Shown here in pieces: positions 48,259-60,533 of a DNA stretch of 64,000 bases. Location of the stretch: the IMG/VR virus record IMGVR_UViG_3300015365_000054; one strand, given 5' to 3'. Each line of letters opens with the position of its first letter. Position 1 is the stretch's first letter. Source of the stretch: a virus (lineage: Duplodnaviria > Heunggongvirae > Uroviricota > Caudoviricetes). The position numbers and the translations under genes are program-made. The notes beneath the pieces were generated by a model, which had not been told where the DNA came from, did no database searches, and was given only the letters and a program-made list of their open reading frames with translations.

Positions 48259-48518
48259 TCTTCCTCTTCTTTAAGAATCAATTTCATTTCATGAATACGC
48301 ATTGTATTTCTGAAATCACGAATCATTAGTTTAAATGTTAAATACAACGCAAAAGCAAACACCGCCGAGACAGACCAAAGTATAATTCTTTCTGATATAT
48401 GTCTTCCAATAAAATAAATGGCTTTGGTGAACAAATAAATTGCTGGTGAAAGAATCATAGTAGGTATGATAATTTCACCATACAATGTATACCAAAATGA
48501 TTTTGATCTGTTATTCAT
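48255..48518 (-). CDS. small membrane protein (87 aa, 2 TM)
   Basis: Its stop overlaps the next gene's start by 4 nt. The architecture is similar to its neighbours. Confidence 0.4.
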   Translation of the reverse strand: MNNRSKSFWYTLYGEIIIPTMILSPAIYLFTKAIYFIGRHISERIILWSVSAVFAFALYLTFKLMIRDFRNTMRIHEMKLILKEEEE

Positions 48519-48957
48519 ATGTTAACCCCAAATACTGCATCATCCTTCGCTTTACCATTGTATTTGGTATTCGGTGTTTTCTGTTTGTTGGTTCAAACCC
48601 AAGTATAGTACCCACTTCAACTACAGCACCAGACCTGCAAACTCCAGCATGACAATGTACAATCACATCATGCTTATCATCTATTGCAGATGTGAGAATC
48701 TTACACAGATATTCAGCCTGTGTTGGTGTGATTAAATCCTCATATCCACACTTATACAAAACAGATGATTCCCAAGTATCATTGGTGACATCTGATTCAT
48801 CAGCATCCAAAAATTTGAGCTGATACACTTCCTTGAATTTTTTCTTTGGAAAAGGATGACCAACACCCGGATCTGAAATTTGGATCAGGATGGCATTAGA
48901 TGAATCAGAATGATTCCCTTTAATAATATCATCTCTTGATACATTTTCAATGAACAT
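48511..48957 (-). CDS. dual-specificity protein phosphatase (Cys-based, CX5R)
   Basis: VIVHCHAGVCRSGAV is the HCxxGxxRS catalytic P-loop. 148 aa. Confidence 0.8.
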   Translation of the reverse strand: MFIENVSRDDIIKGNHSDSSNAILIQISDPGVGHPFPKKKFKEVYQLKFLDADESDVTNDTWESSVLYKCGYEDLITPTQAEYLCKILTSAIDDKHDVIVHCHAGVCRSGAVVEVGTILGFEPTNRKHRIPNTMVKRRMMQYLGLTYE

Positions 48958-50254: not shown

Positions 50255-50342
50255 TGGCGGGTAGTGAAGGATTCGAACCCTCGTGGCTGTTACACCCATC
50301 TGATTTCAAATCAGCGACAATTGGCCTCTCTGTCAACTACCC
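50255..50342 (-). tRNA. tRNA-Ser (anticodon TGA), class II
   Basis: Acceptor GGGTAGT/ACTACCC, discriminator G, encoded CCA. Anticodon loop TTTGAAA, long variable arm, T-loop TTCGAAT. Confidence 0.75.
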
Positions 50343-50389
50343 ATAATCTTAGTGTATATTATTTATGATCAAATGTACAGCATTATTTT

Positions 50390-50479
50390 CGGAAGATGTA
50401 GGATTTGAACCCACAAACCATTTTTCAATGATCAAACAACTTTCGAAGTTGCGCGGCTCACCAATACCGTAGATCTTCC
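50390..50479 (-). tRNA. tRNA-Ser (anticodon CGA), class II
   Basis: Acceptor GGAAGAT/ATCTTCC, discriminator G. Anticodon loop TTCGAAA, long variable arm, T-loop TTCAAAT. CCA not encoded. Confidence 0.65.
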
Positions 50480-50484
50480 ATATA

Positions 50485-50931
50485 TTATTGCATAAATTCC
50501 GGAACTTGTCTATTTTTCCAGTGAGCAATATGCCCCTTATGTAATTTATAGTATTTTCGGTATGATTCAATAACATTATTAGTTTTACAATCATCTGGCA
50601 TTGCTTGTGCAAATGTAGTCAATTCCCCATCAGGAATGTTGTCTGGTGGTGATGTCAGTTGTTCGATTATAGCCTGACACTTATGCACTTTACCATATCT
50701 ATGCGTATATTCCTTACACAATGCAATCCCCAACTCAACCAACCAAGAATAATTTGATTTTGTTGATCTCGCCCATATAGTGCATGGGTGATTCCGATGT
50801 GTAGGTTTATACGGACCGCCACAAATCGTACTCAACATTTGTGCTGTCTCCAATGGCATCTTAACCACATGCTTATCCATGTGCATCTGTGCTGATATTA
50901 CAGGATCTTTATCTAATACAAATATGTTCAT
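50485..50931 (-). CDS. possible pyrimidine-dimer DNA glycosylase (DenV-like)
   Basis: 148 aa. N-terminus MNIFVLDKDPVISAQMHMDKHVVKMPLETAQML follows the pattern of the T4 endonuclease V N-terminus ([24 protein letters not shown]). Resemblance is weak and from memory. Confidence 0.3.
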   Translation of the reverse strand: MNIFVLDKDPVISAQMHMDKHVVKMPLETAQMLSTICGGPYKPTHRNHPCTIWARSTKSNYSWLVELGIALCKEYTHRYGKVHKCQAIIEQLTSPPDNIPDGELTTFAQAMPDDCKTNNVIESYRKYYKLHKGHIAHWKNRQVPEFMQ

Positions 50932-50945
50932 AATTTAGTGTGTAA

Positions 50946-51020
50946 TGGTGCGGATAGTGAGAATCGAACTCACATCTAAACGTTGGCAACGTCCAATAAT
51001 AGCCTTTATACCATATCCGC
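50946..51020 (-). tRNA. tRNA-Gly (anticodon GCC)
   Basis: Acceptor GCGGATA/TATCCGC, discriminator A, CCA encoded. Anticodon loop TTGCCAA, T-arm GTGAG-TTCGATT-CTCAC. Confidence 0.65.
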
Positions 51021-51033
51021 ATAATAATGTAAA

Positions 51034-51122
51034 TGGCAGAGGATAGTGGAATCGAACCACAGCCAGTTTCCCAACTATCTTGATTTCCAATCAAGCGCAG
51101 ATGCCAAACTGCAATATCCTCT
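51034..51122 (-). tRNA. tRNA-Ser (anticodon GGA), class II
   Basis: Acceptor AGAGGAT/ATCCTCT, discriminator G, CCA encoded. Anticodon arm CTTGA-TTGGAAA-TCAAG, long variable arm. Confidence 0.65.
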
Positions 51123-51124
51123 AC

Positions 51125-51199
51125 TGGTGCCCAAATAAGGAATCGAACCTTAATCTCATTCTTACCAAGAATGTATACTTACCATTGTAATATATGGGC
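51125..51199 (-). tRNA. tRNA-Thr (anticodon GGT)
   Basis: Anticodon arm CATTC-TTGGTAA-GAATG, T-loop TTCGATT, CCA encoded. One acceptor mismatch. Confidence 0.6.
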
Positions 51200-51204
51200 A
51201 ATGA

Positions 51205-51627
51205 TTACCTAATACCGATTAAAACAGCGTGATCATAAATGAGTTCACAGTCTGGCATGTCAACAACATATACACATGGTATCATTTTGGTCGAATCATT
51301 TCTTCTACCTTCAAGATTAAAATAATTACCTTCCCACATAACATTTCTATAACAATGTATTGTTGCTGTGTCATTATGACTGAAGTTGATCGTGCATCCC
51401 CTAATCAGTCTATTACCAATATAAGATGGTATTTCTATGGAGTTGTGGATATGATATATCTTACCATCAACTAATTGATTATAGGTGATATCATTCAACA
51501 AATCATTTTCATTTAGTTCTCTGGTATATTGATTCGTTTTGGGTAAAATCCGTAAATTTTTAGCTGCCACAGGAAATGCAACCACCGAAGCAATACCCAA
51601 TCCAAGCAAAAAATGTCGTCTATTCAT
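51205..51627 (-). CDS. secreted protein with a twin-arginine (Tat) signal peptide (140 aa)
   Basis: N-terminus MNRRHFLLGLGIASVVAFPVAAK matches the Tat consensus (S/T)RRxFLK followed by an AxA-like cleavage site. Confidence 0.45.
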   Translation of the reverse strand: MNRRHFLLGLGIASVVAFPVAAKNLRILPKTNQYTRELNENDLLNDITYNQLVDGKIYHIHNSIEIPSYIGNRLIRGCTINFSHNDTATIHCYRNVMWEGNYFNLEGRRNDSTKMIPCVYVVDMPDCELIYDHAVLIGIR

Positions 51628-51644
51628 AACAAATTCCTCGTATT

Positions 51645-51717
51645 TGGTAGCGGGCTAGGGTAACGATCCCTATTCGACTTAGGCTTATGAGACCTAGCGG
51701 TGCCATCACAACCCGCA
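51645..51717 (-). tRNA. tRNA-Met/fMet/Ile2 (anticodon CAT) with an unpaired 1-72 position and an atypical T-loop ATCGTTA
   Basis: Acceptor TGCGGGT/GCCCGCT with T-T at 1-72. Anticodon arm TAGGT-CTCATAA-GCCTA, T-arm TAGGG-ATCGTTA-CCCTA, CCA encoded. The 1-72 mismatch suggests an initiator. Confidence 0.5.
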
Positions 51718-51721
51718 AAAC

Positions 51722-51796
51722 TGGTGCGCAAAGAAGGACTTGAACCTTCATCCTCGGTTTCGTAAACCGAAATTCTCTCCATTGAACTATTCGCGC
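51722..51796 (-). tRNA. tRNA-Arg (anticodon ACG)
   Basis: Acceptor GCGCGAA/TTTGCGC, anticodon arm TCGGT-TTACGAA-ACCGA, T-loop TTCAAGT, CCA encoded. Confidence 0.75.
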
Positions 51797-51801
51797 AAAA
51801 T

Positions 51802-51876
51802 TGGTTGTGGCGGTCAGACTCGAACTGACACATAATCCCCTATGATGGGATCTTTCTACCATTGAACTACACCACA
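51802..51876 (-). tRNA. tRNA-Met or Ile2 (anticodon CAT)
   Basis: Acceptor TGTGGTG/CGCCACA, D-arm AGTTCAATGGTAGAA, anticodon arm ATCCC-ATCATAG-GGGAT, T-loop TTCGAGT, CCA encoded. Confidence 0.7.
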
Positions 51877-52093
51877 ATATTATTTATTTAAACAATACAT
51901 ATCCGGCATCAGATGGGAAGGAACTTCCCCAATCCATAATTTTCTTAATATCGTCCGCTTCACTTGCACCATCTACTTGCCCAACATAGTACTTGTGACT
52001 AAAATCATCACAAATTACCTTAACAATGCCGACATTACCATGTCCCGCACAAAACCACTTTACACCAACAAATGATTGCATATATACCTCTTG

Positions 52094-52167
52094 TGGGTTT
52101 ACTGAGATTCGAACTCAGATCATACTGGGTAAGAGCCAGATATAATAGCCATTATACGATAAACCCA
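52094..52167 (-). tRNA. tRNA-Lys (anticodon CTT); the anticodon assignment is tentative
   Basis: Acceptor GGGTTTA/TAAACCC, T-arm CTGAG-TTCGAAT-CTCAG. Best anticodon parse is a 4-bp stem with loop CTCTTAC. Confidence 0.5.
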
Positions 52168-52181
52168 AATTAATTGCAAAC

Positions 52182-52400
52182 TTAAACTCCAAAATGGTCA
52201 ATAATTCTCGCAACTGCTTCATATGCCACACCATTTTCGTCTTTCCTAATTTGTGCAATGCATTCATTCACAATCAATGCGGTGAACTTTTGTAAATCTT
52301 CTTCTTTATAGAACTTGACAGAGGTTGACATACCTTCCCACCATCCAGGGAAGAATTCTCCACCAGCCTGTTCAGCCAATACTTTAATTCTTTCATTCAT
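52182..52400 (-). CDS. hypothetical protein (72 aa)
   Basis: ORF only. Confidence 0.3.
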   Translation of the reverse strand: MNERIKVLAEQAGGEFFPGWWEGMSTSVKFYKEEDLQKFTALIVNECIAQIRKDENGVAYEAVARIIDHFGV

Positions 52401-52581
52401 ACATCACCATCAACTTCTAAAATCAACTCGAAACCAAACGCCAGTCGCATCACACCTTTCTTCAGCATCAGCAAACTGATCTGCTTCGGGGACATTATCA
52501 AACTCCGCCACATCCTTTTCCCAAGTTTCATAACCATCGTTAAAGCATCTGACCACAACCCACGTCATTTCAATCTCCTGA

Positions 52582-52827
52582 TTAAACACAACCTTCTAAT
52601 AACTGACTGACCCAGATCGATTTAGTATTATCGACCAACGTCCCGTCACTGGTTGCAACTTTAACCTTAACAACACGATCTGGTTTACCAAATCTCTTAG
52701 AAACATCTTCTAGTGATAGAACTGTAGAGACGTAGAAGAAAGCATCCCCATACCAACCTTTGCGTAAACTGCTAGTGAATATATCACCAACTTTCACGTT
52801 TAAATAATTTGGGTTATTTGCTGGCAT
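52582..52827 (-). CDS. hypothetical protein (81 aa)
   Basis: ORF only. Confidence 0.3.
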   Translation of the reverse strand: MPANNPNYLNVKVGDIFTSSLRKGWYGDAFFYVSTVLSLEDVSKRFGKPDRVVKVKVATSDGTLVDNTKSIWVSQLLEGCV

Positions 52828-52908
52828 TTCTCTCTACCTCAATTCACTATAGAATCATTATACACGAAAAAAGTAAAAAAGCAATAGAAAAATTAGACAA
52901 ATTTAAAA

Positions 52909-52984
52909 TGGCGACCCCGCAAGGATTCGAACCTCGATTTTACGGCTTTGGAGACCGATGTAATAGCCATTATACCACGGAGTC
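52909..52984 (-). tRNA. tRNA-Trp (anticodon CCA)
   Basis: Acceptor GACTCCG/CGGGGTC (one G-T), discriminator G, CCA encoded. Anticodon loop CTCCAAA on a 4-bp stem, T-loop TTCGAAT. Confidence 0.6.
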
Positions 52985-53075
52985 ATAGTGCTAGGACTCG
53001 AACCTAGTATCGTAATGCGATTTCACGTAGGGCAACGTAACCTTCCTACGCCTTACCATACAGCTGGAGGCACAT
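52985..53075 (-). other. tRNA-like element: canonical T-arm (CTAGG-TTCGAGT-CCTAG) without a resolvable acceptor stem
   Basis: Perfect T-arm at 52991..53007 abutting tRNA-Trp. No complementary 5' acceptor strand within 120 nt. Possible pseudo-tRNA or a fold I could not resolve. Confidence 0.3.
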
Positions 53076-53108
53076 TTGATAGCAAAATCCTGCCACTGTA
53101 TATATTTA

Positions 53109-53183
53109 TGGTGTGACATGCAGGATTCGAACCTACATCAAGAGTTTAGGAAACTCCTATTCTATCCATTGAACTAATGTCAC
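53109..53183 (-). tRNA. tRNA-Arg (anticodon CCT)
   Basis: Acceptor GTGACAT/ATGTCAC, anticodon arm GGAGT-TTCCTAA-ACTCT, T-loop TTCGAAT, CCA encoded. Confidence 0.65.
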
Positions 53184-53186
53184 AAT

Positions 53187-53606
53187 TTATCGCCCACATT
53201 TGGTGGCTATTTCCACTAGATTGGGTGTTTCCAACACTGTTCTACTTGCTAAGAAACGGGTATCTGAAGAGTCACCATCTATCCTAACCCAAATGTATTC
53301 TGATGGTTTGGGTTCGATGTATTTAACCACGCCACGGCTGATTCTCTCGAATCCATGAAAAATACCTACTCTACTACCGATATTAACAGTGTCAATCTCT
53401 AAAATGGTTTTTAATTTGGCTGTCAGGATATTTTTCTGTATTGGGGATGATGTAGCATCATCAACACATACACCAATGATCATTTTTGTATATTCCTTTA
53501 GATCAAAGTTATCACACTGAGAACACGAATCAAAATCATCTTCTTGCCACCCAGCCTGTGCTGCTATTTTTTCCCATCTATTCATAATATTCATAACCTT
53601 ACTCAT
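53187..53606 (-). CDS. hypothetical protein (139 aa)
   Basis: ORF only. Cys pair CSQCDN near the N-terminus. Confidence 0.35.
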   Translation of the reverse strand: MSKVMNIMNRWEKIAAQAGWQEDDFDSCSQCDNFDLKEYTKMIIGVCVDDATSSPIQKNILTAKLKTILEIDTVNIGSRVGIFHGFERISRGVVKYIEPKPSEYIWVRIDGDSSDTRFLASRTVLETPNLVEIATKCGR

Positions 53607-53626
53607 AATCTACCTCTATATTAAAT

Positions 53627-53710
53627 TGGTGCGAGTGGTCGGACTCGAACCGACATGATTTTCATCGACGGATTTTAAGTCCGTTGCGTCTACCATTTCA
53701 CCACACTCGC
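53627..53710 (-). tRNA. tRNA-Leu (anticodon TAA), class II
   Basis: Acceptor GCGAGTG/CACTCGC, anticodon arm ACGGA-CTTAAAA-TCCGT, long variable arm, T-loop TTCGAGT, CCA encoded. Confidence 0.75.
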
Positions 53711-53711
53711 A

Positions 53712-53930
53712 TTATGCATTAATTTTCTTTACAAATTTATCATATAGGATTTTAAGTTTAATTTTAATTGTCTGATCCCTATCAACCAAGTACGTGATGG
53801 AATTACCTGTTTTTTCTATCACGTAATAATTTTTAACTATGTTACGAAATGTTTCATCTTCCACAAAATACATGTATAACAAATCCCAGCCTTCCGGTGT
53901 GATATTTTCAGCTTGTAATTCTTGTATCAT
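53712..53930 (-). CDS. hypothetical protein (72 aa)
   Basis: ORF only. Confidence 0.3.
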   Translation of the reverse strand: MIQELQAENITPEGWDLLYMYFVEDETFRNIVKNYYVIEKTGNSITYLVDRDQTIKIKLKILYDKFVKKINA

Positions 53931-53939
53931 AAATCCCCC

Positions 53940-54272
53940 TTAGAACATTGTTCTTATTTCTATTCCATATTTGGATGGTCTGATATAAGTGTTTCCTAAC
54001 CAGACACCAAGTGATGCTCCAACAGCATCAGCCAACAAATCGCCCTTTGAAAATATGTTGTTATGTTGTCTTGAATCAATAATTTCTTTGATAAGACCAG
54101 ATGCCATAGCAACACCAAAAGCAGCATATTTGTTTTCTATCAGTGTCCCTGATGCAGCACCTAATAATAGGGATACACCAGCATGATAGTTTTTGTCAAC
54201 ACCATATGTATCCGTCTCTGCTGCAATGGCTGTTGATGATAAAAGTAACAATAAAATATATAATGTTTTCAT
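53940..54272 (-). CDS. small secreted or membrane protein with an N-terminal signal peptide and a Gly/Ala-rich hydrophobic core (110 aa)
   Basis: MKTLYILLLLLSSTAIAAE signal peptide. Gly-zipper-like segments GAASGTL and GVAMASG. Confidence 0.35.
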   Translation of the reverse strand: MKTLYILLLLLSSTAIAAETDTYGVDKNYHAGVSLLLGAASGTLIENKYAAFGVAMASGLIKEIIDSRQHNNIFSKGDLLADAVGASLGVWLGNTYIRPSKYGIEIRTMF

Positions 54273-54478
54273 ACAGTGATGTTATTGACGAATGAATCCA
54301 ATACTTCCATTTTAAATCGGTTACATCCAAAACTATCTTTCTGATTGTCCATTTCATATCTATCCGAAGTAGAATATGCCTCTCTTTCATCAGTATGAAT
54401 GGAGACAACATCTATTGTATCATCTATTATATCTCGACGTATTACAACATATAACATTTTAACATTTATGTCCATCAA
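54269..54478 (-). CDS. hypothetical protein (69 aa)
   Basis: ORF only. Confidence 0.25.
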   Translation of the reverse strand: MMDINVKMLYVVIRRDIIDDTIDVVSIHTDEREAYSTSDRYEMDNQKDSFGCNRFKMEVLDSFVNNITV

Positions 54479-54499
54479 TAAACCCTCATGATATTAAAT

Positions 54500-54577
54500 T
54501 GGTCGGGTATGCAGGATTTGAACCTGCAACCTTCTGCTCCCAAAGCAGACGCACTACCAAGTTGTGCTAATACCCGA
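54500..54577 (-). tRNA. tRNA-Pro (anticodon TGG), copy 1
   Basis: Acceptor (T)CGGGTA/TACCCGA, anticodon arm TCTGC-TTTGGGA-GCAGA, T-loop TTCAAAT, CCA encoded. Confidence 0.7.
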
Positions 54578-54586
54578 ATTTCAAAA

Positions 54587-54662
54587 TGGTGCAAGGTCCA
54601 AGATTTGAACTTGATTCTTACCGTCTTCAGCGGTACGCTATGACCACACCAGCTCACCTTGC
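54587..54662 (-). tRNA. tRNA-Phe (anticodon GAA)
   Basis: Acceptor GCAAGGT/ACCTTGC, anticodon arm TACCG-CTGAAGA-CGGTA, T-loop TTCAAAT, CCA encoded. Confidence 0.8.
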
Positions 54663-55297
54663 AATATTCTTTTGTATTCTGCTTTCTCAACAATTACTAT
54701 TTTTTTATCCGGATGCTGTTCCATTACAGCCTCCATTTTTTGCTTATCATTTCCCCACCAGTATCCTTTAATCTCAAGATAAACATTAAATCCAGAGAGA
54801 TAGAAATCTGGAGAGTAAGATCTAATTTTACCATTTAATACATACTTTATCAAATCTGTATTGGTTTTTGGTTTGCTCCAGTCAATTCCCATTTCGTTTA
54901 ACTTTAATGCTATATTGTATTCCCATGTACCTTGTACCTTAATACCATTAACATCAAACCATTTACATTTTCCGCCACGATTTTTTATGGATTGTTCTTC
55001 GCTTAATTTCAAGCGAGCTGATTCCCCCATACGATTGATTCGATATGTGCCGTTTTTAACTTTAGTTTGTAGTGTATCTGAAACTGCTTTGGCGTGTCTT
55101 GCTACAGCATCACTAGTTTCTTTTGTTAATCCTTTATTCCACGCAGGAACCCCAACTGGGTGACCAACTTTACCTGGTCTATTTGCACGTTCTTCTTGCA
55201 TTCGTAAACACTTTGATTGATGATCTTTATGTCTAGTTGATACAATAGATTTATTACAATGAATACAATTTCTATAACTCTTAATATACATGGGCAT
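54638..55297 (-). CDS. putative endonuclease: N-terminal Zn-finger plus C-terminal PD-(D/E)xK-like domain (possible free-standing homing endonuclease)
   Basis: CIHCNKS...H..H..C finger and a C-terminal YSPDFYL...NVYLEIKGYW (D...E-x-K) motif. The 3' end overlaps tRNA-Phe by about 25 nt, so the true stop may differ. Confidence 0.3.
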   Translation of the reverse strand: MPMYIKSYRNCIHCNKSIVSTRHKDHQSKCLRMQEERANRPGKVGHPVGVPAWNKGLTKETSDAVARHAKAVSDTLQTKVKNGTYRINRMGESARLKLSEEQSIKNRGGKCKWFDVNGIKVQGTWEYNIALKLNEMGIDWSKPKTNTDLIKYVLNGKIRSYSPDFYLSGFNVYLEIKGYWWGNDKQKMEAVMEQHPDKKIVIVEKAEYKRILQGELVWS

Positions 55298-55368
55298 ATC
55301 TCCTCTACACCAATGTATTTATTATTCAGTGCTAATCCATCTCAGCTAAGTTGGCAAATAAACGACTT

Positions 55369-55447
55369 TGGGGTGACTGGTGGGACTTGAACCCACAAAA
55401 ATCCAAGGTCACAGCTTGGGATGTCTACCAATTCCATCACAGTCACC
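55369..55447 (-). tRNA. tRNA-His (anticodon GTG) with an encoded G-1
   Basis: 8-bp acceptor G-1 plus GTGACTG paired with CAGTCAC plus C73. Anticodon arm CCAAG-CTGTGAC-CTTGG, T-loop TTCAAGT, CCA encoded. Confidence 0.8.
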
Positions 55448-55480
55448 CCAAAGTCGTCTAATTATAAGATAACACACCAG

Positions 55481-55570
55481 ATGCTGATCAGGCATTTACA
55501 GGAATCGAACCTGCCACCCTGTGGTACAAGGCTGTATCCAACGACCCATTGCGCATGGGCTAGTGTGTTA
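55481..55570 (-). other. tRNA-like element: T-arm (GCAGG-TTCGATT-CCTGT) lacking a matching acceptor stem, flanked by the inverted repeat AACACAC/GTGTGTT
   Basis: T-arm at 55498..55514. No 5' strand complementary to AAATGCC was found. Possible degenerate tRNA. Confidence 0.25.
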
Positions 55571-55807
55571 TATTCGAATTTGTTTACCGCTACTCGTTAC
55601 CACGAAATTGAATAGCTGAATCAACGTATTGATCTGCTGCACACATCGGATTCACACATAACGGCAGTGGTGTGGTTATGTGCTTTTGGGTATCTGTGCA
55701 CACACGTAAACAAAATAGGTTAAATATCTAAATATACTAAATAAAGGTGTCTGTCACGATATTAGCAGTATCCACAGACTCTAGTAACTTAATAGGAGTA
55801 TACCAGC

Positions 55808-56617
55808 ATGTCTATTTATTCAACAATATATTGTTCCTGCATTATCTGTAAGGAAGTAAGACCATCCAAAGGCATTCGTTCTCACTACGCTGCTTCACAT
55901 ACCGAAGAAGGTAGGAAGCGAATAAAGGAAAATGGTATTCTATATGGTAAACTTGGCAGAGATACCTTTAAAAAGAAATGCACATCTAAAAAAGAATATG
56001 CAATTCACCAATATAATTTATCACCTAATACATGTAAACATTGTAATAGTATATTAGATTTTGATAAAAAAAGCAATAAATTTTGTTCACAATCATGTTC
56101 TGTTTCCTATTCTAACAAAAGAAGACATAAAATATTATCTCAAACTGCACTTGATAATATCCGTAACGCTAACTTAGTTCGTTCTGTTGTTGCTGGTGAT
56201 TATTGTAGAATTTATCGCTGTAGGAAATGTCAAAAATATCACCCATCAACCGAACAAAAACATTTATGTTGTAAAGATTCATCTACCGCATATAGACCAT
56301 TATGTAAATTTTCCTTTAATCTCGGTGATTATCCAGAAGAGTTCGACTTGAGTTTAATAGAAAAGCATGGAATGTTTTCCCCAACAAAAAATCCAACTGG
56401 AGTATCAAGGGATCATATGGTTTCTATTGATTATGCGTTTAAGCATAAAATAGATCCATCAATAATCAGGCATCCAGCAAATTGTAGGATTATTCTACAA
56501 AAAGATAATTCTCAAAAACACACTAAGAGCGAAATATCTTTAGATGAATTACTATATAGAATTATCGATTGGGATATCAAATATCAATCTAGGAATGGTG
56601 GGTCCGCTGAGAGTTGA
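55808..56617 (+). CDS. HNH-type endonuclease-like protein with N-terminal Cys-rich zinc-finger repeats (possible homing endonuclease)
   Basis: C-terminal SRDHMVSIDYAF...HPANCRIILQKDNSQKH is HNH-like (DH..N..H). Multiple CxxC pairs upstream. Only plus-strand gene inside the minus-strand tRNA array. Its 3' end overlaps tRNA 56596..56672 on the other strand. Confidence 0.45.
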   Translation: MSIYSTIYCSCIICKEVRPSKGIRSHYAASHTEEGRKRIKENGILYGKLGRDTFKKKCTSKKEYAIHQYNLSPNTCKHCNSILDFDKKSNKFCSQSCSVSYSNKRRHKILSQTALDNIRNANLVRSVVAGDYCRIYRCRKCQKYHPSTEQKHLCCKDSSTAYRPLCKFSFNLGDYPEEFDLSLIEKHGMFSPTKNPTGVSRDHMVSIDYAFKHKIDPSIIRHPANCRIILQKDNSQKHTKSEISLDELLYRIIDWDIKYQSRNGGSAES

Positions 56618-56672
56618 ACTCAGAGTTTCATCGATTATGAGTCGAGTGTTTTGACCATTAAACTACAGACCC
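56596..56672 (-). tRNA. tRNA-Met (anticodon CAT), G1-C72 paired, so elongator Met or Ile2
   Basis: Acceptor GGGTCTG/CGGACCC, anticodon loop CTCATAA on a TCGA/TCGA stem, T-arm CTGAG-TTCAACT-CTCAG, CCA encoded. Confidence 0.65.
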
Positions 56673-56679
56673 CAAACAT

Positions 56680-56955
56680 TTACAATTTCTCAGTAGGATT
56701 CCATATAGTAACAATAAATCTGTTTTGTCCTTTTCCAATAGAATGCTGTTCATATCCATCAGGAATAGAAACATACCAATTGTTTTTTCTAGCTTCACTT
56801 ATGGATTTAAACTTACCAATCCTAGCAAGAAGATGTGCCATTGTTTTATCAGATTCTTCCAATGGAATGATTATATCATCTCCACCAAATCCAAGCAAAT
56901 CATTATCAACATCAGATTGATAATTTTTTCCAACAATGACAAAATTATTTTTCAT
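56680..56955 (-). CDS. hypothetical protein (91 aa)
   Basis: ORF only. Confidence 0.3.
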   Translation of the reverse strand: MKNNFVIVGKNYQSDVDNDLLGFGGDDIIIPLEESDKTMAHLLARIGKFKSISEARKNNWYVSIPDGYEQHSIGKGQNRFIVTIWNPTEKL

Positions 56956-56971
56956 ATAATCTCCAAAACAA

Positions 56972-57046
56972 TTGGCAGGGGATGGTGGTAACGCTCCACC
57001 TCACTCGGTTTCAAAGACCGATATCTGCTCTTATCGATTTATCCCC
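56972..57046 (-). tRNA. tRNA-Gln (anticodon TTG) with atypical T-loop AGCGTTA
   Basis: Perfect acceptor AGGGGAT/ATCCCCT, discriminator G, CCA encoded. Anticodon arm TCGGT-CTTTGAA-ACCGA, T-arm GGTGG-AGCGTTA-CCACC. Confidence 0.55.
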
Positions 57047-57052
57047 TATAAA

Positions 57053-57127
57053 CTGGAGTTGTGGACTGGATTTGAACCAGCGTAATAGAATTTTGCAGAC
57101 TCTAACCTAACCACTCGGTCACCACAA
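57053..57127 (-). tRNA. tRNA-Cys (anticodon GCA)
   Basis: Acceptor GTTGTGG/CCACAAC, discriminator T, CCA encoded. Anticodon arm AGAGT-CTGCAAA-ATTCT, T-loop TTCAAAT. Confidence 0.65.
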
Positions 57128-57146
57128 CATAAACCTGCGAAATCAA

Positions 57147-57320
57147 TTTGGTTTATACCAAACACATTCCTTATCATGTTCTAATTCTTTTCCCACATAG
57201 TGTGGAGCACCACAACAATTACAGTAACTATCAATACCAGTTCGTCGTATTAGTTCCTGTATATCTCTCTGGTGATAAAATTCCCTCAACCATTCGGAAA
57301 AATTAAATTCTTTATCCATA
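57147..57320 (-). CDS. small Cys/His-rich zinc-finger-like protein (57 aa, below the ORF-track cutoff)
   Basis: Minus-strand ORF MDKEFNFSEWLREFYHQRDIQELIRRTGIDSYCNCCGAPHYVGKELEHDKECVWYKPN between two tRNAs. Confidence 0.25.
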
Positions 57321-57345
57321 AAAATTACCCCAACAATAAAATAAA

Positions 57346-57435
57346 TTGGCGGAAGGTACAGGATTCGAACCTGTGTGCCCTTTTCAGAACCATCTGTTTA
57401 GCAAACAGTGTCAATTAGCCACTCTGACAACCTCC
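57346..57435 (-). tRNA. tRNA-Ser (anticodon GCT), class II
   Basis: Acceptor GGGAGGT/ACCTTCC, discriminator G, CCA encoded. Anticodon loop TTGCTAA on stem CTGT/ACAG, long variable arm, T-arm ACAGG-TTCGAAT-CCTGT. Confidence 0.6.
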
Positions 57436-57747
57436 CATAAATTTTATCTTAAAAACTGTTCCGGTTGGTGTGGTCATTGGTTGAACATCAACTAGACTTG
57501 CAGCGATTATAGATGGATACAAACCTCGTACCTTTCTTGTGTAGATTCTAAAAGCACGTATCATATACAATTTCTTATGTCTACCGGATAACTTATTATA
57601 TCGATGTGATGTACCAGCCTTTTCATGATTGGTAATAGCATCTGTTAACTGTTTTTCCAAGTATTCTAATGTATGCTTCATATATAACCTGTATATAATT
57701 GGTGCCCTCACGAGGTAACGCTCCCCGAACTGATGATTACAAGTCAA
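57415..57747 (-). CDS. hypothetical basic protein (110 aa; may start at the internal MKHTLEY)
   Basis: ORF whose last 20 nt overlap the tRNA-Ser(GCT) 5' end. Uncertain. Confidence 0.25.
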   Translation of the reverse strand: MTCNHQFGERYLVRAPIIYRLYMKHTLEYLEKQLTDAITNHEKAGTSHRYNKLSGRHKKLYMIRAFRIYTRKVRGLYPSIIAASLVDVQPMTTPTGTVFKIKFMGGCQSG

Positions 57748-57781
57748 CTGTTATACTACTTAACTATAAGGGCAAATCATT

Positions 57782-57857
57782 TGGTGCACAGTGTAGGACT
57801 CGAACCTACATCTTCCACTTTGTAAGAATGGTGCTTAACCCCTCAGACCAACTGTGC
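57782..57857 (-). tRNA. tRNA-Val (anticodon TAC)
   Basis: Acceptor GCACAGT/ACTGTGC, anticodon arm CCATT-CTTACAA-AGTGG, T-arm GTAGG-TTCGAGT-CCTAC, CCA encoded. Confidence 0.7.
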
Positions 57858-57864
57858 GTGAATT

Positions 57865-57946
57865 TGGTGGAAGCCGAGGGAGTTGAACCCTTCTAGTCAG
57901 CAATCTTGCAAGGATTACCCGTAACCCGTTACTGCCCCCATGAAAT
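57865..57946 (-). other. tRNA-like element with an Ala-type anticodon arm (TAATC-CTTGCAA-GATTG, anticodon TGC) but no resolvable acceptor stem
   Basis: T-loop TTCAACT with only a 4-bp stem. The 3' end GGCTTCC-A-CCA has no complementary 5' strand before tRNA-Tyr begins. Possible pseudo-tRNA-Ala. Confidence 0.3.
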
Positions 57947-58031
57947 TGGTGGAATGTACTGGGATCGAACCAGTCGTGCCATTAGGCGGCTGATTTACAG
58001 TCAGCTGCATCACCATTGATGCTTCCACTCC
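57947..58031 (-). tRNA. tRNA-Tyr (anticodon GTA), class II
   Basis: Acceptor GGAGTGG/ACATTCC (6 of 7 pairs), D-arm GCAT-CAATGGTG-ATGC, anticodon arm GCTGA-CTGTAAA-TCAGC, variable hairpin GCC-TAAT-GGC, T-arm ACTGG-TTCGATC-CCAGT, CCA encoded. Confidence 0.7.
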
Positions 58032-58042
58032 GAAATAAAATT

Positions 58043-58118
58043 TGGCGGTCTTAGGGGGTAACGATCCCCACTCTTCGGCAGTGACAGTACCGTGTGCGTC
58101 CATAAACACTTTAAGACC
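58043..58118 (-). tRNA. tRNA-Asp (anticodon GTC) with atypical T-loop ATCGTTA
   Basis: Perfect acceptor GGTCTTA/TAAGACC, discriminator G, CCA encoded. D-stem GTGT/GCAC, anticodon arm CGGTA-CTGTCAC-TGCCG, T-arm (T)GGGG-ATCGTTA-CCCC(C). 76 nt. Confidence 0.55.
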
Positions 58119-58262
58119 TATGTTCTTTTCTTTCCAGCATATGTACTGGTTTGTGAGTGACAATTTGGACAGACCAATCTGATGTTTTCTGGTCTATTAT
58201 CATTATTGATGCCATTCACATGATCGACTTGAAGCGATAGGTAATTGCCATTCTTTATAGCG

Positions 58263-58280
58263 TACCATATAGAAACACAC
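58263..58280. repeat. 18-nt repeat copy 1 (TACCATATAGAAACACAC)
   Basis: Matches 58480..58497 with one mismatch and is the inverse complement of 58341..58357. Confidence 0.75.
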
Positions 58281-58340
58281 TGCGTTGACAAATCTTGTCA
58301 ATAACACATAATCTTATTTCGACACTGCTTATTCCTACAT

Positions 58341-58357
58341 TGTGTTTCTATATGGTA
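58341..58357. repeat. inverted copy of the 18-nt repeat (TGTGTTTCTATATGGTA), itself embedded in a CCTACAT/ATGTAGG hairpin
   Basis: Reverse complement of copy 1. Confidence 0.75.
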
Positions 58358-58479
58358 TGTAGGGCGGGGGGTGGTTTTAATTCCCGTTTCAAACGATAGT
58401 CCGGACTATCTACGCGGTTATCAGTGAACTTTGCTTCCGCAACCTAACTAAGTCTTTGTCGTTTCGGTTACTTCCTACA

Positions 58480-58497
58480 TACCATATAGGAACACAC
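58480..58497. repeat. 18-nt repeat copy 3 (TACCATATAGGAACACAC), preceded by TCCTACAT like the inverted copy
   Basis: One mismatch relative to copy 1. Confidence 0.75.
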
Positions 58498-58688
58498 CTA
58501 ATTTGTTCAATGCTGACACAAAGAACCTTTCGCAACTGTTAGGTCACCGCAGACAGCACTGCGGCTTAGGGCAGCACTGAATGCGTCAGGAATGTTCATA
58601 TATGGTACTAATTTTTAAAGAACGTTTAATATCTAATTAATATAACATTATTTAACGTACATGTCAACAAGATTCACATTACCATAAA

Positions 58689-59111
58689 TTACAGTAACTT
58701 CAAATGTCCAGTAATTGGATCTAATTTCTCTGGAAATTCGGGTCCAATAGCTACTACAGTGTTAGTAGGAACCCCATGAAATTCAGTTAATCCACTATCA
58801 GTAATTAATGAACAAAGTATACCAGCATCTTGTGCTTTTTTATAAAGATCAAGTAATTCTTCTTCTGAATCTACTGATACACAAACTTTAGTAAATTTTC
58901 CTTTAATCCAATTGTTTAATGGACTGTTATAGTACAACGGAAGAACTAACCCATCTATTACATGATTTTCATCATTAGTATATTCTTCCATTAAATCCAA
59001 TAACACTTTCATTGAAGCATGTGCGACTTGCGCAGCAATTTTACCTTTACGCATGTTCAAGTCTTTTCGCACAATTAAAATTTGTTTTGGTTCACTCATA
59101 TTATCCCACAT
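58689..59111 (-). CDS. peptidyl-tRNA hydrolase, PTH2 (archaeal/eukaryotic type) family
   Basis: KGKIAAQVAHASMKV and ITDSGLTEFHGVPTNTVVAIGP match the PTH2 signature segments (GKxAAQxxHA and DAGxTEfxGxPTxTAxAIGP). 140 aa. Confidence 0.7.
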   Translation of the reverse strand: MWDNMSEPKQILIVRKDLNMRKGKIAAQVAHASMKVLLDLMEEYTNDENHVIDGLVLPLYYNSPLNNWIKGKFTKVCVSVDSEEELLDLYKKAQDAGILCSLITDSGLTEFHGVPTNTVVAIGPEFPEKLDPITGHLKLL

Positions 59112-59301
59112 ATGTTGATTGTTGATACTGAAATGTTCTGGTATGGACTCGCACCATACTCCGCTCTATCCACAAACTACTAATGAATACGGAACTTGTA
59201 CTTCATTCTATCTTATCACTTTCACCTAAAGCACATGCACATCAAACACTTCAGAACATATCAATAATCTGTACTAGTGATAACGCACACTAGCAAGCAA
59301 A

Positions 59302-59377
59302 GTCTGATTGTTGGCGCGTCTGGTAGGATTCGAACCTACGTTTATCTGCTTAGAAGGCAGATGCCTGATCCACTAGA
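59302..59377 (-). tRNA. tRNA-Arg (anticodon TCT)
   Basis: Acceptor GCGTCTG/CAGACGC, discriminator G, CCA encoded. Anticodon arm TCTGC-CTTCTAA-GCAGA, T-arm GTAGG-TTCGAAT-CCTAC. Confidence 0.8.
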
Positions 59378-59383
59378 CTACAG

Positions 59384-59459
59384 ACGCATAATTTGGTAGG
59401 CATGAGTGGAATTGAACCACACATCTATGAGTTATCAGCTCATTGTTCTCGCCATTGAA
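59384..59459 (-). tRNA. tRNA-Ile (anticodon GAT)
   Basis: Acceptor GGGCATG/CATGCCT, anticodon arm ATGAG-CTGATAA-CTCAT, T-loop TTCAATT, CCA encoded. Confidence 0.7.
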
Positions 59460-59467
59460 CTACATGC

Positions 59468-59544
59468 CCAATAAAATTGGCTCCACCTCGTGGGTTCGAA
59501 CCACGCAATTTCTGATTAACAGTCAGACCCGTTCACCAAGCTCG
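59468..59544 (-). tRNA. tRNA-Asn (anticodon GTT)
   Basis: Perfect acceptor TCCACCT/AGGTGGA, discriminator G, CCA encoded. Anticodon arm TCTGA-CTGTTAA-TCAGA, T-arm CGTGG-TTCGAAC-CCACG. Confidence 0.75.
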
Positions 59545-59617
59545 GTCAGGTGGAATAAAATTGGTCGTTTATTATAGACCGAACGATAGCGGTCACCTCT
59601 TTCTACCACTGGTAGGT
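59545..59617. other. 73-nt spacer folding into three consecutive hairpins; contains an ATCGTT T-loop-like segment and a TATAAT box but no foldable tRNA
   Basis: Minus sense CTACC-agt-GGTAG, GACCG-ctatcgtt-CGGTC and GGTC-tataataaac-GACC, ending ACCA. Confidence 0.3.
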
Positions 59618-59703
59618 GAGCAAAAATTGGAGCGGATAGCGAGACTCGAACTCGCGTGCAACTTTCGTTTGCTGGTTTGGAAGACCAGTGCCTGACCTCT
59701 AGG
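59618..59703 (-). tRNA. tRNA with a Gly anticodon (TCC) but a 16-nt class-II-like variable region (86 nt)
   Basis: Perfect acceptor GCGGATA/TATCCGC, discriminator T, CCA encoded. Anticodon arm CTGGT-CTTCCAA-ACCAG, variable region CAAACGAAAGTTGCAC (hairpin AAC-gaaa-GTT), T-arm GCGAG-TTCGAGT-CTCGC. Confidence 0.5.
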
Positions 59704-59707
59704 CTAT

Positions 59708-59783
59708 ATCCGCAAATTGGTACTCCAGAAGGGATTCGAACCCTCTCTTCAAGATTGAAAGTCTTGCGATCTGACCGATTAAT
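59708..59783 (-). tRNA. tRNA-Glu (anticodon TTC)
   Basis: Anticodon arm CAAGA-CTTTCAA-TCTTG, T-arm GAGGG-TTCGAAT-CCCTT, CCA encoded. Acceptor has one mismatch and one wobble. Confidence 0.6.
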
Positions 59784-59786
59784 CTA

Positions 59787-59860
59787 CAGGAGCATATGGT
59801 GGGGGTGTAGGGTACTGACCCCTATTTTACGAGTTAAAAGCTCGGTACTTCACCTTAAAG
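59787..59860 (-). tRNA. tRNA-Lys (anticodon TTT) with a non-canonical T-loop (GTCAGTA)
   Basis: Perfect acceptor GGGGGTG/CACCCCC, discriminator A, CCA encoded. Anticodon loop CTTTTAA on a 4-bp stem CGAG/CTCG, T-stem TAGGG/CCCTA. Confidence 0.5.
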
Positions 59861-59868
59861 TTTCACCC

Positions 59869-59954
59869 CCCCGAAACTTGGTGCCTGTGGAGGGAATCGA
59901 ACCCCCAATCTCGTATGAGCAATGCGTTCTAAGCGCATCGTGTATCCCGTTCCA
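59869..59954 (-). tRNA. tRNA-Leu (anticodon TAG), class II
   Basis: Perfect acceptor GCCTGTG/CACAGGC, discriminator A, CCA encoded. Anticodon arm ATGCG-CTTAGAA-CGCAT, variable hairpin CTC-atac-GAG, T-loop TTCGATT. Confidence 0.75.
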
Positions 59955-59958
59955 CCAC

Positions 59959-60035
59959 ACAGGCAAATTGGTCAGCTAGGCAGGACTCGAACCTGCAACC
60001 ACATGCTCCCAAAGCATGCATTCTCGCCAATTGAA
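59959..60035 (-). tRNA. tRNA-Pro (anticodon TGG), copy 2 with a different body
   Basis: Perfect acceptor CAGCTAG/CTAGCTG, discriminator A, CCA encoded. Anticodon arm CATGC-TTTGGGA-GCATG, T-arm GCAGG-TTCGAGT-CCTGC. Confidence 0.65.
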
Positions 60036-60533
60036 CTACTAGCTGTGAAATCATTGTATGTCTCTCCATACTGTCACGCACTCTTGAATTAAGAATAGTG
60101 GCGTTGACTATATTCGTAAAACTAATATGTTATTAAAGATCATAATTCCAATCAACTTAGGATTAGAACCCCAGCTTACTTTATACTGGGTCTTTTATCA
60201 AAAGAGACAAAAGACAGAATTCATAATAAATCATGCCGCATTTTTCATCGTCGGATGACGACTTGGGATTTTTCACAATCCTACCCAATTTGGGAAGTAG
60301 CGGATCACTCCAGATAATTCCGGTTTACTATATAGTCATATTATATAATTATATAGCACTTTTTTTGAAAAATCAACACATTTTTATTAAAAATTTAAAA
60401 CTTTTAACTAAATGTCTAGCGGCTGATTCATCATGTGAAGCATTATACACGCTAACCAAAAGAAGTCAATACATATTTTACATAAACACTAAATATTAAT
60501 TATACCCCAACCCATCTGAACACAAGGACAATC

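Follow-up and report, generated by a model that had tools for sequence, protein, structure and literature searches.

The 64,000-nucleotide stretch of Caudoviricetes DNA analysed here (IMG/VR record IMGVR_UViG_3300015365_000054, hereafter the window) carries about 33 tRNA genes on one strand, 32 of them credible, with small phage open reading frames (ORFs) interspersed. The arrangement itself, a tRNA cluster accompanied by nuclease genes and a gene for the peptidyl-tRNA hydrolase PTH2, is ordinary and already known for large phages. What stands out is a group of tRNAs with a rewired elbow, which are virus-specific, real, structurally constrained and under-annotated. The leading example is tRNA-Asp(GUC), in which A54…U58 takes the place of the U54·A58 pair of the T-loop, and four more tRNAs of the window carry related non-canonical T-loops.

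Results

Non-canonical T-loops in the window

Five tRNAs of the window lack the U54·A58 pair, and with it the UUC motif of the T-loop, while the other 28 of the 33 are canonical (U54·A58, U55 C56, G18 G19). The T-loop reads AUCGUUA in tRNA-Asp and in the tRNA-Met/Ile2(CAU) at 51645, AGCGUUA in tRNA-Thr(UGU) and tRNA-Gln, whose D-loops are without GG, and GUCAGUA in tRNA-Lys(UUU), a third form with G54…G58. All stems of the five are intact and all encode CCA, and for Asp and Gln the non-canonical version is the only one supplied by the phage. A preliminary description of this DNA, made from the letters alone, had listed tRNA genes that proved sound but had overlooked these T-loops. The Gln T arm recurs in other viral tRNAs. 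A scan with the T arm of the Met gene at 51645 gave 3 matches, one of them in a tRNA-Lys(UUU), and found no relatives of the Met gene.

The Asp gene was followed across viruses with its exact 16-nt T arm as the search key. This 16-mer occurs in at least 120 IMG/VR stretches, and among the 120 matches listed are 105 tRNAs, comprising 99 Asp, 4 Lys-UUU and 2 Gly-GCC. The cellular comparison, which rests on the same exact 16-mer, gave 93 matches in 596 Gb of cellular genomes, no more than chance, and only 2 of them were tRNAs. In the alignment of 31 distinct Asp sequences, where the T arm owes its invariance to its use as the search key, 99.7% of cells were paired and 10 of the 20 pairs showed compensatory changes (106 compensatory cells); when partners were slid by 1-3 columns as a control, only 35-54% were paired. 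The only GenBank isolate with an A54…U58 tRNA-Asp is Ralstonia phage RSP15 (NC_030948), whose copy at 93341-93416 (L289 6001-6076) is 83% identical and lies unannotated inside that phage's own tRNA array, although RSP15 is otherwise not a close relative. The Asp gene of the window belongs to a virus-specific, structurally constrained tRNA family with A54…U58 replacing U54·A58. Because the RSP15 copy is unannotated and four genes of the window are invisible to the Rfam tRNA model, phage tRNA counts are underestimated.

The only cellular copy of the odd tRNA-Asp is at 5673-5688 of a 23-kb contig (L362) from a Haliscomenobacter sp. metagenome-assembled genome. It is identical to a viral variant, and the contig is probably a mis-binned phage contig.

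Two rewired forms of the elbow across viral tRNAs

To place these genes among viral tRNAs, 2144 distinct default-threshold tRNAs from all viral loci of the analysis were compared. Canonical U54…A58 was found in 1971 of them, 1874 with GG in the D-loop and 97 with none. The combination A54-U55…U58 was found in 109, which include Asp, Ile, Glu, Lys, Thr, His, Met and Ala tRNAs, and every one of the 109 keeps the D-loop GG (G18 G19). A second combination, A54-G55…U58, was found in 12, none of which has the D-loop GG; their D-loops read AAAAGYA or AGUAGUA, that is A18 G19. Position 54 covaries with 58 (Fisher 1.6e-19) and position 55 with 18 (Fisher 4e-16; G18 lost in 12/12 versus 0/109), values that come from sequences which are not independent and from loci some of which were fetched by T-arm pattern. 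The D-loop was never part of any search key, and ARAGORN scoring would bias against the association between 55 and 18.

The U54·A58 pair and the G18/U55 contact pass for near-universal features of tRNA. Here fixed replacements that compensate one another stand in for both, and the tRNAs that carry them are otherwise perfectly formed, conserved with covarying stems and almost confined to viruses. A review of the T-loop describes U54 as universal save for the A54·A58 of the eukaryotic initiator (PMC7912444). That initiator tRNA-Met resembles the viral tRNAs in having A54 in place of U54 in a functional tRNA (A54·A58, A60; PMC7912444). It differs in that the viral A54 stands with U58 rather than in an A·A pair, that the viral tRNAs are elongators of many specificities, and that their second form has G for U55 and A for G18 as well. 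Full-text literature searches for an A54-U58 T-loop pair returned nothing, which is not proof of novelty.

Decay would offer another account, in which many of the tRNA genes, chiefly the non-canonical ones, are functionless pseudogenes. Decay products do occur in the array, with one clear remnant (the Arg(UCG)-like gene), a tRNA-like fragment at 55499-55575 and a T-arm-like hairpin upstream of the PTH2 gene, and four of the calls are invisible to the Rfam tRNA model. The non-canonical tRNAs, in contrast, have intact stems and encoded CCA; compensatory change and near-complete pairing mark the Asp family (106 cells, 99.7%); the T-loop changes are non-random, falling into two fixed patterns with matching D-loop changes; and even the long-armed tRNA-Gly described below has a compensatory T-stem change in contig L007. 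Taken with this evidence, wholesale decay is very improbable, and the reading of the variants as constrained viral tRNAs is the one followed here.

The tRNA array as a whole

ARAGORN was run over the 64-kb window at its default threshold and at the relaxed setting -ps90 (90%), and the Rfam tRNA covariance model RF00005 was applied with its gathering score of 29 bits. By default ARAGORN found 27 tRNA genes in the whole window, all on the minus strand within 50255-60045 and none elsewhere. RF00005 likewise gave 27 minus-strand matches above the gathering score (34.8-70.3 bits), a set that overlaps that of ARAGORN but is not identical to it. Rfam finds tRNA-Lys(UUU) (59800-59870, 42.9 bits) and tRNA-Tyr(GUA) (57950-58031, 34.8 bits), which default ARAGORN misses, while Ser-GGA and Ser-CGA have no RF00005 match, their best match being tRNA-Sec below its gathering score. 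At -ps90 there were 33 calls, every one on the minus strand and between ORFs. The six additions are Met-CAU (51645-51717), the Arg-UCG-like gene (52982-53055), Gln-UUG (56973-57047), Ala-UGC (57865-57939), Tyr and Lys-UUU, and they are not due to chance, because 100 dinucleotide shuffles of the region gave 0.13 calls per 10.3 kb and the remaining 50 kb of the window only 1 call at the same setting. With RF00005, the genes for Asp (58043), Gln (56973), Ala (57865) and Met (51645) and the Arg-UCG-like gene were all below the gathering score or unreported; the first four were not reported in short stretches even at E values up to 10.

All 20 amino acids are represented in the 33-gene set. Of the 33 ARAGORN structures, 32 fold into a four-arm cloverleaf whose stems pair, whose 7-nt anticodon loop contains U33 and whose 3' end is CCA or a discriminator; the Arg-UCG-like gene departs from this by its missing U33 and its acceptor mismatches. 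CCA is encoded in 30 of the 33 (exceptions Ser-CGA, Lys-CUU and the Arg-UCG-like gene), and an A/U-rich trailer usually comes next. The preliminary description had counted about 30 minus-strand tRNAs, most with CCA, and three tRNA-like fragments, which agrees with the 33 calls, and the automated finder kept most of its hand-folded genes (27 by default, 33 at -ps90). Its positions for the PTH2, endonuclease-I-like, 269-aa and RRHFLLG ORFs also hold. It had placed the end of the array at 60035, whereas the last tRNA ends at 60045, and the genes beyond its 30 are the second Thr, Ala-UGC and the degenerate Arg-UCG-like gene. No recent duplication was found within the array. Its repeats are no more than the general resemblance among tRNAs, with a likeness of 74% between the two Pro genes. 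Promoter and terminator scans were overall not above shuffle expectation. For the odd D arm of tRNA-Ala(UGC) a scan of IMG/VR returned nothing, so this gene is without comparative support. The features of the array are given below from 60045 down to 50255.

59969-60045, minus strand: tRNA-Pro(UGG), first of the array (ARAGORN; Rfam 66.2 bits)
59879-59964, minus strand: tRNA-Leu(UAG) (ARAGORN, Rfam)
59797-59870, minus strand: tRNA-Lys(UUU), T-loop GUCAGUA with G54 and G58 (Rfam 42.9 bits; ARAGORN -ps90)
59718-59793, minus strand: tRNA-Glu(UUC) (ARAGORN, Rfam)
59628-59713, minus strand: tRNA-Gly(UCC), 86 nt (ARAGORN; Rfam 61.2 bits)
59478-59554, minus strand: tRNA-Asn(GUU) (ARAGORN, Rfam)
59394-59469, minus strand: tRNA-Ile(GAU) (ARAGORN, Rfam)
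59312-59387, minus strand: tRNA-Arg(UCU) (ARAGORN, Rfam)
58689-59111, minus strand: PTH2, 140 aa (PF01981 3.9e-34; TIGR00283)
58292-58667, minus strand: promoter-like site and folding non-coding stretch with a 23-bp inverted repeat (fold z -3.99)
58118-58291, minus strand: probable truncated HNH endonuclease gene, 57-aa ORF (PF01844, PF13392, phrog_10822)
58043-58118, minus strand: tRNA-Asp(GUC), T-loop AUCGUUA with A54 and U58 (ARAGORN default; no Rfam match)
57947-58031, minus strand: tRNA-Tyr(GUA) (Rfam 34.8 bits; ARAGORN -ps90)
57865-57939, minus strand: tRNA-Ala(UGC), G3:U70, aberrant D arm, lower confidence (ARAGORN -ps90 only)
57782-57857, minus strand: tRNA-Val(UAC) (ARAGORN, Rfam)
57700-57773, minus strand: tRNA-Thr(UGU), T-loop AGCGUUA, D-loop AGUAGUA without GG (ARAGORN; Rfam 48.5 bits)
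57347-57436, minus strand: tRNA-Ser(GCU) (ARAGORN, Rfam)
57054-57128, minus strand: tRNA-Cys(GCA) (ARAGORN, Rfam)
56973-57047, minus strand: tRNA-Gln(UUG), T-loop AGCGUUA, D-loop without GG (ARAGORN -ps90; no Rfam match)
56596-56672, minus strand: tRNA-Met/Ile2(CAU) (ARAGORN, Rfam)
55808-56617, plus strand: 269-aa ORF, zinc fingers and probable His-Me finger (homologue motif, model)
55499-55575, minus strand: tRNA-like fragment (relative at L216 2759-2830)
55369-55446, minus strand: tRNA-His(GUG), encoded G-1 (ARAGORN, Rfam)
54638-55297, minus strand: 219-aa T7-endonuclease-I-type PD-(D/E)xK protein (PF05367; phrog_945, phrog_15137)
54587-54662, minus strand: tRNA-Phe(GAA) (ARAGORN, Rfam)
54500-54576, minus strand: tRNA-Pro(UGG), second copy (ARAGORN, Rfam)
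53627-53710, minus strand: tRNA-Leu(UAA) (ARAGORN, Rfam)
53109-53183, minus strand: tRNA-Arg(CCU) (ARAGORN, Rfam)
52982-53055, minus strand: degenerate Arg(UCG)-like remnant without U33 or CCA, two acceptor mismatches, 3-nt overlap with Trp (ARAGORN -ps90 only)
52909-52984, minus strand: tRNA-Trp(CCA) (ARAGORN, Rfam)
52093-52166, minus strand: tRNA-Lys(CUU), CCA not encoded (ARAGORN, Rfam)
51802-51876, minus strand: tRNA-Met(CAU) (ARAGORN, Rfam)
51722-51796, minus strand: tRNA-Arg(ACG) (ARAGORN, Rfam)
51645-51717, minus strand: tRNA-Met/Ile2(CAU), T-loop AUCGUUA, lower confidence (ARAGORN -ps90; no Rfam match)
51205-51627, minus strand: 140-aa protein with twin-arginine-like N-terminus MNRRHFLLGLG…VAA (sequence)
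51125-51199, minus strand: tRNA-Thr(GGU) (ARAGORN, Rfam)
51034-51122, minus strand: tRNA-Ser(GGA), 8-bp acceptor and 4-bp T stem as drawn (ARAGORN)
50946-51020, minus strand: tRNA-Gly(GCC) (ARAGORN, Rfam)
50485-50931, minus strand: 148-aa Pyr_excise-like protein (PF03013 9.6e-8; phrog_624 6.5e-65)
50389-50480, minus strand: tRNA-Ser(CGA), CCA not encoded (ARAGORN)
50255-50342, minus strand: tRNA-Ser(UGA), last of the array (ARAGORN, Rfam)

Phage identity and codon usage

The genes of the window include a baseplate hub with lysozyme, tail and wedge proteins, and a NAMPT and an NMNAT-NUDIX protein for NAD salvage. Since the window carries phage structural genes, a host-derived tRNA island was rejected as an explanation for the cluster. 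Identity of the tail and structural proteins to any GenBank phage is below 30%, the nearest being T4-superfamily myoviruses, and when the whole region was compared with GenBank phages by megablast, nothing beyond single tRNA genes aligned. A 72.8-kb JGI metagenome contig (Ga0182850_1000002) matches the window at 100% identity, and several ENA contigs do so at 97-99.98%. A 357-aa glycosyltransferase-like gene adjoining the array is shared with a family of IMG/VR contigs at 48-73% amino acid identity; some of these are 150-330 kb long, and many have 10-30 tRNA genes beside the gene while others have none. The region is very probably the tRNA cluster of a large, AT-rich, T4-superfamily-like myophage seen in metagenomes only, with PTH2 and nucleases, in which the tRNAs would serve codon supply and the nucleases homing.

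The phage has 37% GC and its own genes are dominated by A-ending codons, which make up 46% (GCA), 67% (CCA), 51% (ACA), 51% (AGA), 79% (GAA), 66% (AAA) and 65% (CAA) of their sets; for each of them a cognate U34 tRNA is present in the array, and nearly all codons that end in A are served by such a tRNA. ATA accounts for 43% of Ile codons, and the array holds three CAU tRNAs, one of which is presumably Ile2. With wobble, the predicted set can read essentially every codon that the phage uses. Judged against the phage genes alone, this fits a tRNA supply matched to phage codons and independent of the host, and the tRNAs would keep phage translation supplied in both respects. The genes would be transcribed as polycistronic precursors from which the tRNAs may be excised by host RNase P and RNase E/Z.

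Two flanking genes and a tRNA of relatives are recorded here as separate observations. A metallophosphoesterase (62806-63426, minus strand) and a dual-specificity-phosphatase-like protein (48511-48957, minus strand) flank the array, and the relative L025 has a metallophosphatase (3066-3629) inside its own array; these could be RNA-end-healing enzymes. Two relatives carry a well-formed tRNA with a CUA anticodon (amber suppressor, 'Pyl' in ARAGORN; L010 8420-8496 and L087/L088 4048-4121), of which the window has none, and this hints at stop-codon reassignment or suppression in part of the phage family.

Nuclease genes within the array

The 219-aa ORF matches PF05367 (Phage_endo_I) with 31.5 bits over residues 127-205 (cut-off 29.1) as well as phrog_945 and phrog_15137, and contains SPDF…LEIKG, a PD…ExK motif, behind a Cys/His-rich N-terminus (CxxC…H…C). 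The 'Holliday junction resolvase' family phrog_9019 also matches it. Its final 25 nt, with the stop codon among them, are shared with tRNA-Phe on the same strand (54638-54662), which confirms the PD-(D/E)xK endonuclease overlapping tRNA-Phe that had been proposed earlier. With the last 8 codons and the stop within the tRNA, RNase P processing would remove the stop codon of the mRNA.

For the 269-aa ORF on the opposite strand, previously described as an HNH-type endonuclease, the ORF itself was confirmed but every HNH profile failed, with no match in Pfam (E up to 10) or NCBIfam. Comparison with PDB sequences, by single sequence and by profile, gave no nuclease family and only zinc-finger noise, and Foldseek against PDB was not significant. 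The alignment of 25 homologues nevertheless has an invariant GVSRDH…HPANC…N…K block (D202, H203, N225 and N234 invariant), which supplies a DH…N…N motif; the AlphaFold model of the C-terminal domain is confident (pLDDT >90), and this domain has consistent but weak fold matches to His-Me fingers, while the N-terminus consists of zinc-finger modules. A zinc-finger array joined to a His-Me-finger (HNH-like) nuclease is the probable, not proven, assignment. Each of the five members examined belongs to the tRNA array of a large phage contig and has a 3' end that abuts or overlaps a tRNA gene, often on the strand opposite to the array; in the window the antisense overlap with tRNA-Met is 22 nt (56596-56617). 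Three homologues end in GLEPTTSxLEG, which is a tRNA T arm read antisense. The family is a candidate new family of homing endonucleases that target tRNA genes.

A third nuclease gene, missed in the preliminary description, is the 57-aa HNH ORF at 58118-58291 abutting tRNA-Asp (PF01844 25.4 bits, cut-off 21.4; PF13392 26.3 bits, cut-off 24.8). It spans only positions 113-155 of 245 in phrog_10822 and has an in-frame stop just upstream, and an intact relative in L025 (6475-6825) has 116 aa; the ORF is a probable truncated pseudogene. Between Ser-CGA and Gly-GCC lies the 148-aa ORF (50485-50931), which is Pyr_excise-like (phrog_624).

Exchange of tRNA genes between near-identical genomes

Contig L007 is 97-98.6% identical to the window and has non-homologous Asp and Pro genes at the same sites. 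The window stretch 58571-58068, comprising the folding non-coding segment, the HNH remnant and tRNA-Asp, is replaced in L007 by 211 unrelated bases with a different, canonical tRNA-Asp, and the HNH remnant is absent there. This is a presence/absence difference at one site in near-identical genomes that takes the remnant cassette together with the adjacent Asp gene. At tRNA-Pro 54500-54576, L007 has a non-homologous Pro-UGG in place of the gene's interior, and it lacks the adjacent 69-aa ORF. Near-identical genomes have exchanged individual tRNA genes and small ORFs as cassettes, and L007 truly differs only in the replaced Asp/HNH and Pro segments and the missing orf69. Apparent deletions of Ser-GCU and Arg-CCU in L007 and an apparent insertion in L001 were rejected, all being 100-N scaffold gaps. 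At the strain level, tRNA-Lys(CUU) (52093-52166) ends in …ACAA in the window versus …ACCA in L007.

Among 80 related loci, of which about 20 kb each was compared and to which the counts apply, the HNH type was found in 10, the 269-aa type in 1, the endonuclease-I type in 0 and PTH2 in 1. Sporadic nucleases together with cassette exchange are the pattern expected of mobile nuclease genes, as with SegB of T4, and the nuclease genes may be selfish elements of the homing type, directed at the neighbourhoods of tRNA genes and responsible for the mosaicism. The preliminary description had proposed endonuclease-driven shuffling of the region. The mosaic structure and the sporadic nucleases agree with that proposal, but near-identical contigs, L007 included, showed no presence/absence polymorphism of the full-length endonuclease ORFs. 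The endonuclease interpretation is reasonable but only partly supported, because these ORFs occur in all near-identical contigs and homing or gene conversion is something we infer rather than observe.

If the embedded nucleases were instead ordinary enzymes of phage DNA metabolism, such as a junction resolvase or a host-DNA nuclease, with genes placed in a variable region by chance, their retention in all near-identical contigs would be expected, and the only significant domain of the 219-aa protein is indeed that of T7 endonuclease I, a junction resolvase, with the match to phrog_9019 pointing the same way. Their distribution argues otherwise, with the 219-aa type in 0 and the 269-aa type in 1 of the 80 loci, in the 20 kb or so covered of each. 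The 269-aa family is always found within tRNA arrays, often on the opposite strand and running into a tRNA gene, which fits an inserted selfish gene, and an N-terminal zinc-finger array joined to a small nuclease domain would be typical of site-specific enzymes. We therefore consider a purely metabolic role rather improbable, and homing-type nucleases remain the favoured reading.

PTH2 and its surroundings

The PTH2 ORF matches PF01981 with 117.8 bits (cut-off 23; 3.9e-34), residues 9-140 aligning with positions 2-115 of the 115 in the profile, and TIGR00283 with 104.4 bits (cut-off 82), which upholds its earlier identification as a peptidyl-tRNA hydrolase. It is 46-55% identical to annotated phage hydrolases of XacN1, RsoM2USA, Atu_ph07, phiM12 and mycobacteriophages. 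The predicted enzyme would hydrolyse peptidyl-tRNA and so may recycle tRNA from dropped-off or stalled peptidyl-tRNA; a role in translation rescue and recycling was proposed earlier for jumbo phages (PMC7824862).

Just past the PTH2 stop codon is a near-consensus extended -10 promoter-like site, TTGACA-17-TATATT (58667-58639, minus strand), and downstream of it about 300 nt fold far better than shuffles (z -3.99) and include a 23-bp inverted repeat. No Rfam family matched this structured stretch (58292-58640). A partial relative of it was seen in L201, while L007 carries a different structured segment at the same site, with relatives in L196 and L308. On the other side of the gene, 20-70 nt upstream of the PTH2 start, a T-arm-like hairpin, GUAUGG-UGCGAGU-CCAUAC, is preceded by a D-arm-like segment (59130-59185, minus strand), and may be a tRNA remnant or a processing signal.

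The 140-aa ORF at 51205-51627 begins, as read from its translation, with N-R-R-H-F-L-L followed by GLGIASVVAFPVAA, which was compared with the S/T-R-R-x-F-L-K motif, hydrophobic stretch and A-x-A site of twin-arginine (Tat) signals. The motif behind the earlier claim of a Tat signal was thus seen, but no family or profile matched the protein in Pfam, PHROGs or NCBIfam, including the Tat profiles TIGR01409 and PF10518.

Other unusual tRNAs

Several other tRNAs of the array and of its relatives depart from the usual shape. tRNA-Gly(UCC) has a hairpin variable arm, AAC-GAAA-GUU, with a Gly-type acceptor and U73; the long arm is kept in L007 with a compensatory T-stem change, and such an arm occurs in 1 of 64 Gly-UCC genes of viral loci. 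ARAGORN draws Ser-GGA with an 8/4 fold, in which an A8-U pair replaces the U·U mismatch of the 7/5 fold, and the 8/4 fold occurs in 3 of 6 distinct sequences from viral loci (including L066 3998-4084 and L255). The Rfam tRNA-Sec model gives this gene 43.9 bits, below its gathering score of 47, and the anticodon is ordinary for Ser; the 8/4 geometry resembles tRNA-Sec or allo-tRNA. Of 41 distinct tRNA-Ile(UAU) sequences from relatives and from other large phage contigs, 35 (91-95 nt; for instance L010 7026-7120, L011 638-729, L084 7142-7236 and L342 4777-4871) have a variable arm drawn out into a long stem-loop. This is a class-II shape, and tRNAs for Ile are normally class I; the window is without Ile-UAU.

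Around tRNA-His (55356-55463, minus strand), leader and trailer lengthen the acceptor helix to about 17-24 bp, and CCA takes part in the pairing. The conserved tRNA-like element at 55499-55575 (minus strand) combines a canonical T arm with a D-like stem of 6 bp that shows compensatory changes, but it has no consistent anticodon. Its copy at L216 2759-2830 has a full 7-bp acceptor stem, whereas the window copy is without the 3' acceptor strand.

Discussion

The array of the window is one more example of a large phage with a near-complete tRNA set, PTH2 and putative selfish nucleases. Jumbo phages such as Xanthomonas phage XacN1 (PMC5852040; survey in PMC7824862) and mycobacteriophages resemble it in having dozens of tRNAs for all 20 amino acids and the hydrolase PTH2, which is of archaeo-eukaryotic type, but the phages of the XacN1 type are otherwise an unrelated lineage, with structural proteins below 30% identity and nucleotide similarity in single tRNA genes only. 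The likeness to T4 is in the free-standing endonuclease gene (SegB) inside a phage tRNA cluster (PMC2330249; PMC13096335). In T4 this enzyme drives preferential inheritance of the neighbouring tRNA genes and in T6 their amplification, and endonuclease genes associated with phage tRNAs are widespread (PMC2330249; PMC13096335). T4, in contrast, has 8 tRNAs and a GIY-YIG enzyme, where the window has about 33 tRNAs and three other, predicted, nuclease types. Phage T5 has a long tRNA region interrupted by small ORFs and by genes for HNH-type site-specific endonucleases. No sequence relationship of the window to T5 was found, with T5-type enzymes outside the comparison.

Some of the results weigh against a cluster that supplies codons and is shaped by homing. 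No near-identical contig that spans the two full-length nuclease ORFs, L007 included, lacks either of them, the one polymorphic nuclease gene is the truncated one, whose activity is no longer to be assumed, and the T7-endonuclease-I-type protein might serve to resolve junctions rather than act in homing. The calls for Ala-UGC, for the Met-CAU gene at 51645 and for Gln-UUG came only at the relaxed ARAGORN threshold, and the Arg-UCG-like gene looks degenerate. Codon compensation is judged from the phage genes alone.

A different purpose for the cluster would be defence against host immunity. It has been described that a bacterial, CRISPR-associated Schlafen nuclease (Cash) cuts the tRNA T-loop at UUC and that single changes of U54 or U55 abolish cleavage; whether it also acts on phage tRNAs is a question left open in that study (PMC13462974). 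Defences that target tRNAs are known to be countered by phage tRNAs (PMC13096335 and work cited there). On these grounds, resistance to Cash-type enzymes would be expected of phage tRNAs that read AUC or AGC there, and the cluster might act mainly to replace host tRNAs cut by immune nucleases, with the rewired-elbow tRNAs going unrecognised by nucleases or elbow-binding factors. Consistent with such a function are the five window tRNAs without the UUC motif, the recurrence of a structurally coherent class in viral contigs (A54 with U58, G55 with loss of G18), the essentially virus-specific Asp family under stem constraint, and the supply of Asp and Gln in the non-canonical version only. Against it, nothing links the host of this phage to a T-loop nuclease, sensitivity would persist in the 28 of 33 tRNAs whose positions 54/58 are canonical, and the anticodon set is already accounted for by codon usage alone. 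The elbow may also have changed to avoid modification enzymes, through different processing, or by drift that a short-lived infection tolerates. An anti-defence role as the main function of the cluster is possible but doubtful, and a tRNA supply matched to phage codons is the reading we prefer for the array.

A more specific proposal concerns the rewired tRNAs themselves, as a virus-specific class of functional tRNAs that takes two elbow forms, spans many specificities, is invisible to covariance finders, and evades host factors that read the T-loop or elbow, likeliest Schlafen/Cash, yet stays usable by synthetases, EF-Tu and the ribosome. We regard this proposal as unlikely in its full form and put it forward only tentatively. 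If it were true, the class would be common in large environmental phages, with five genes in the array of this window alone. The variant sequences are a ready set for testing whether phage tRNAs escape nucleases directed at the T-loop.

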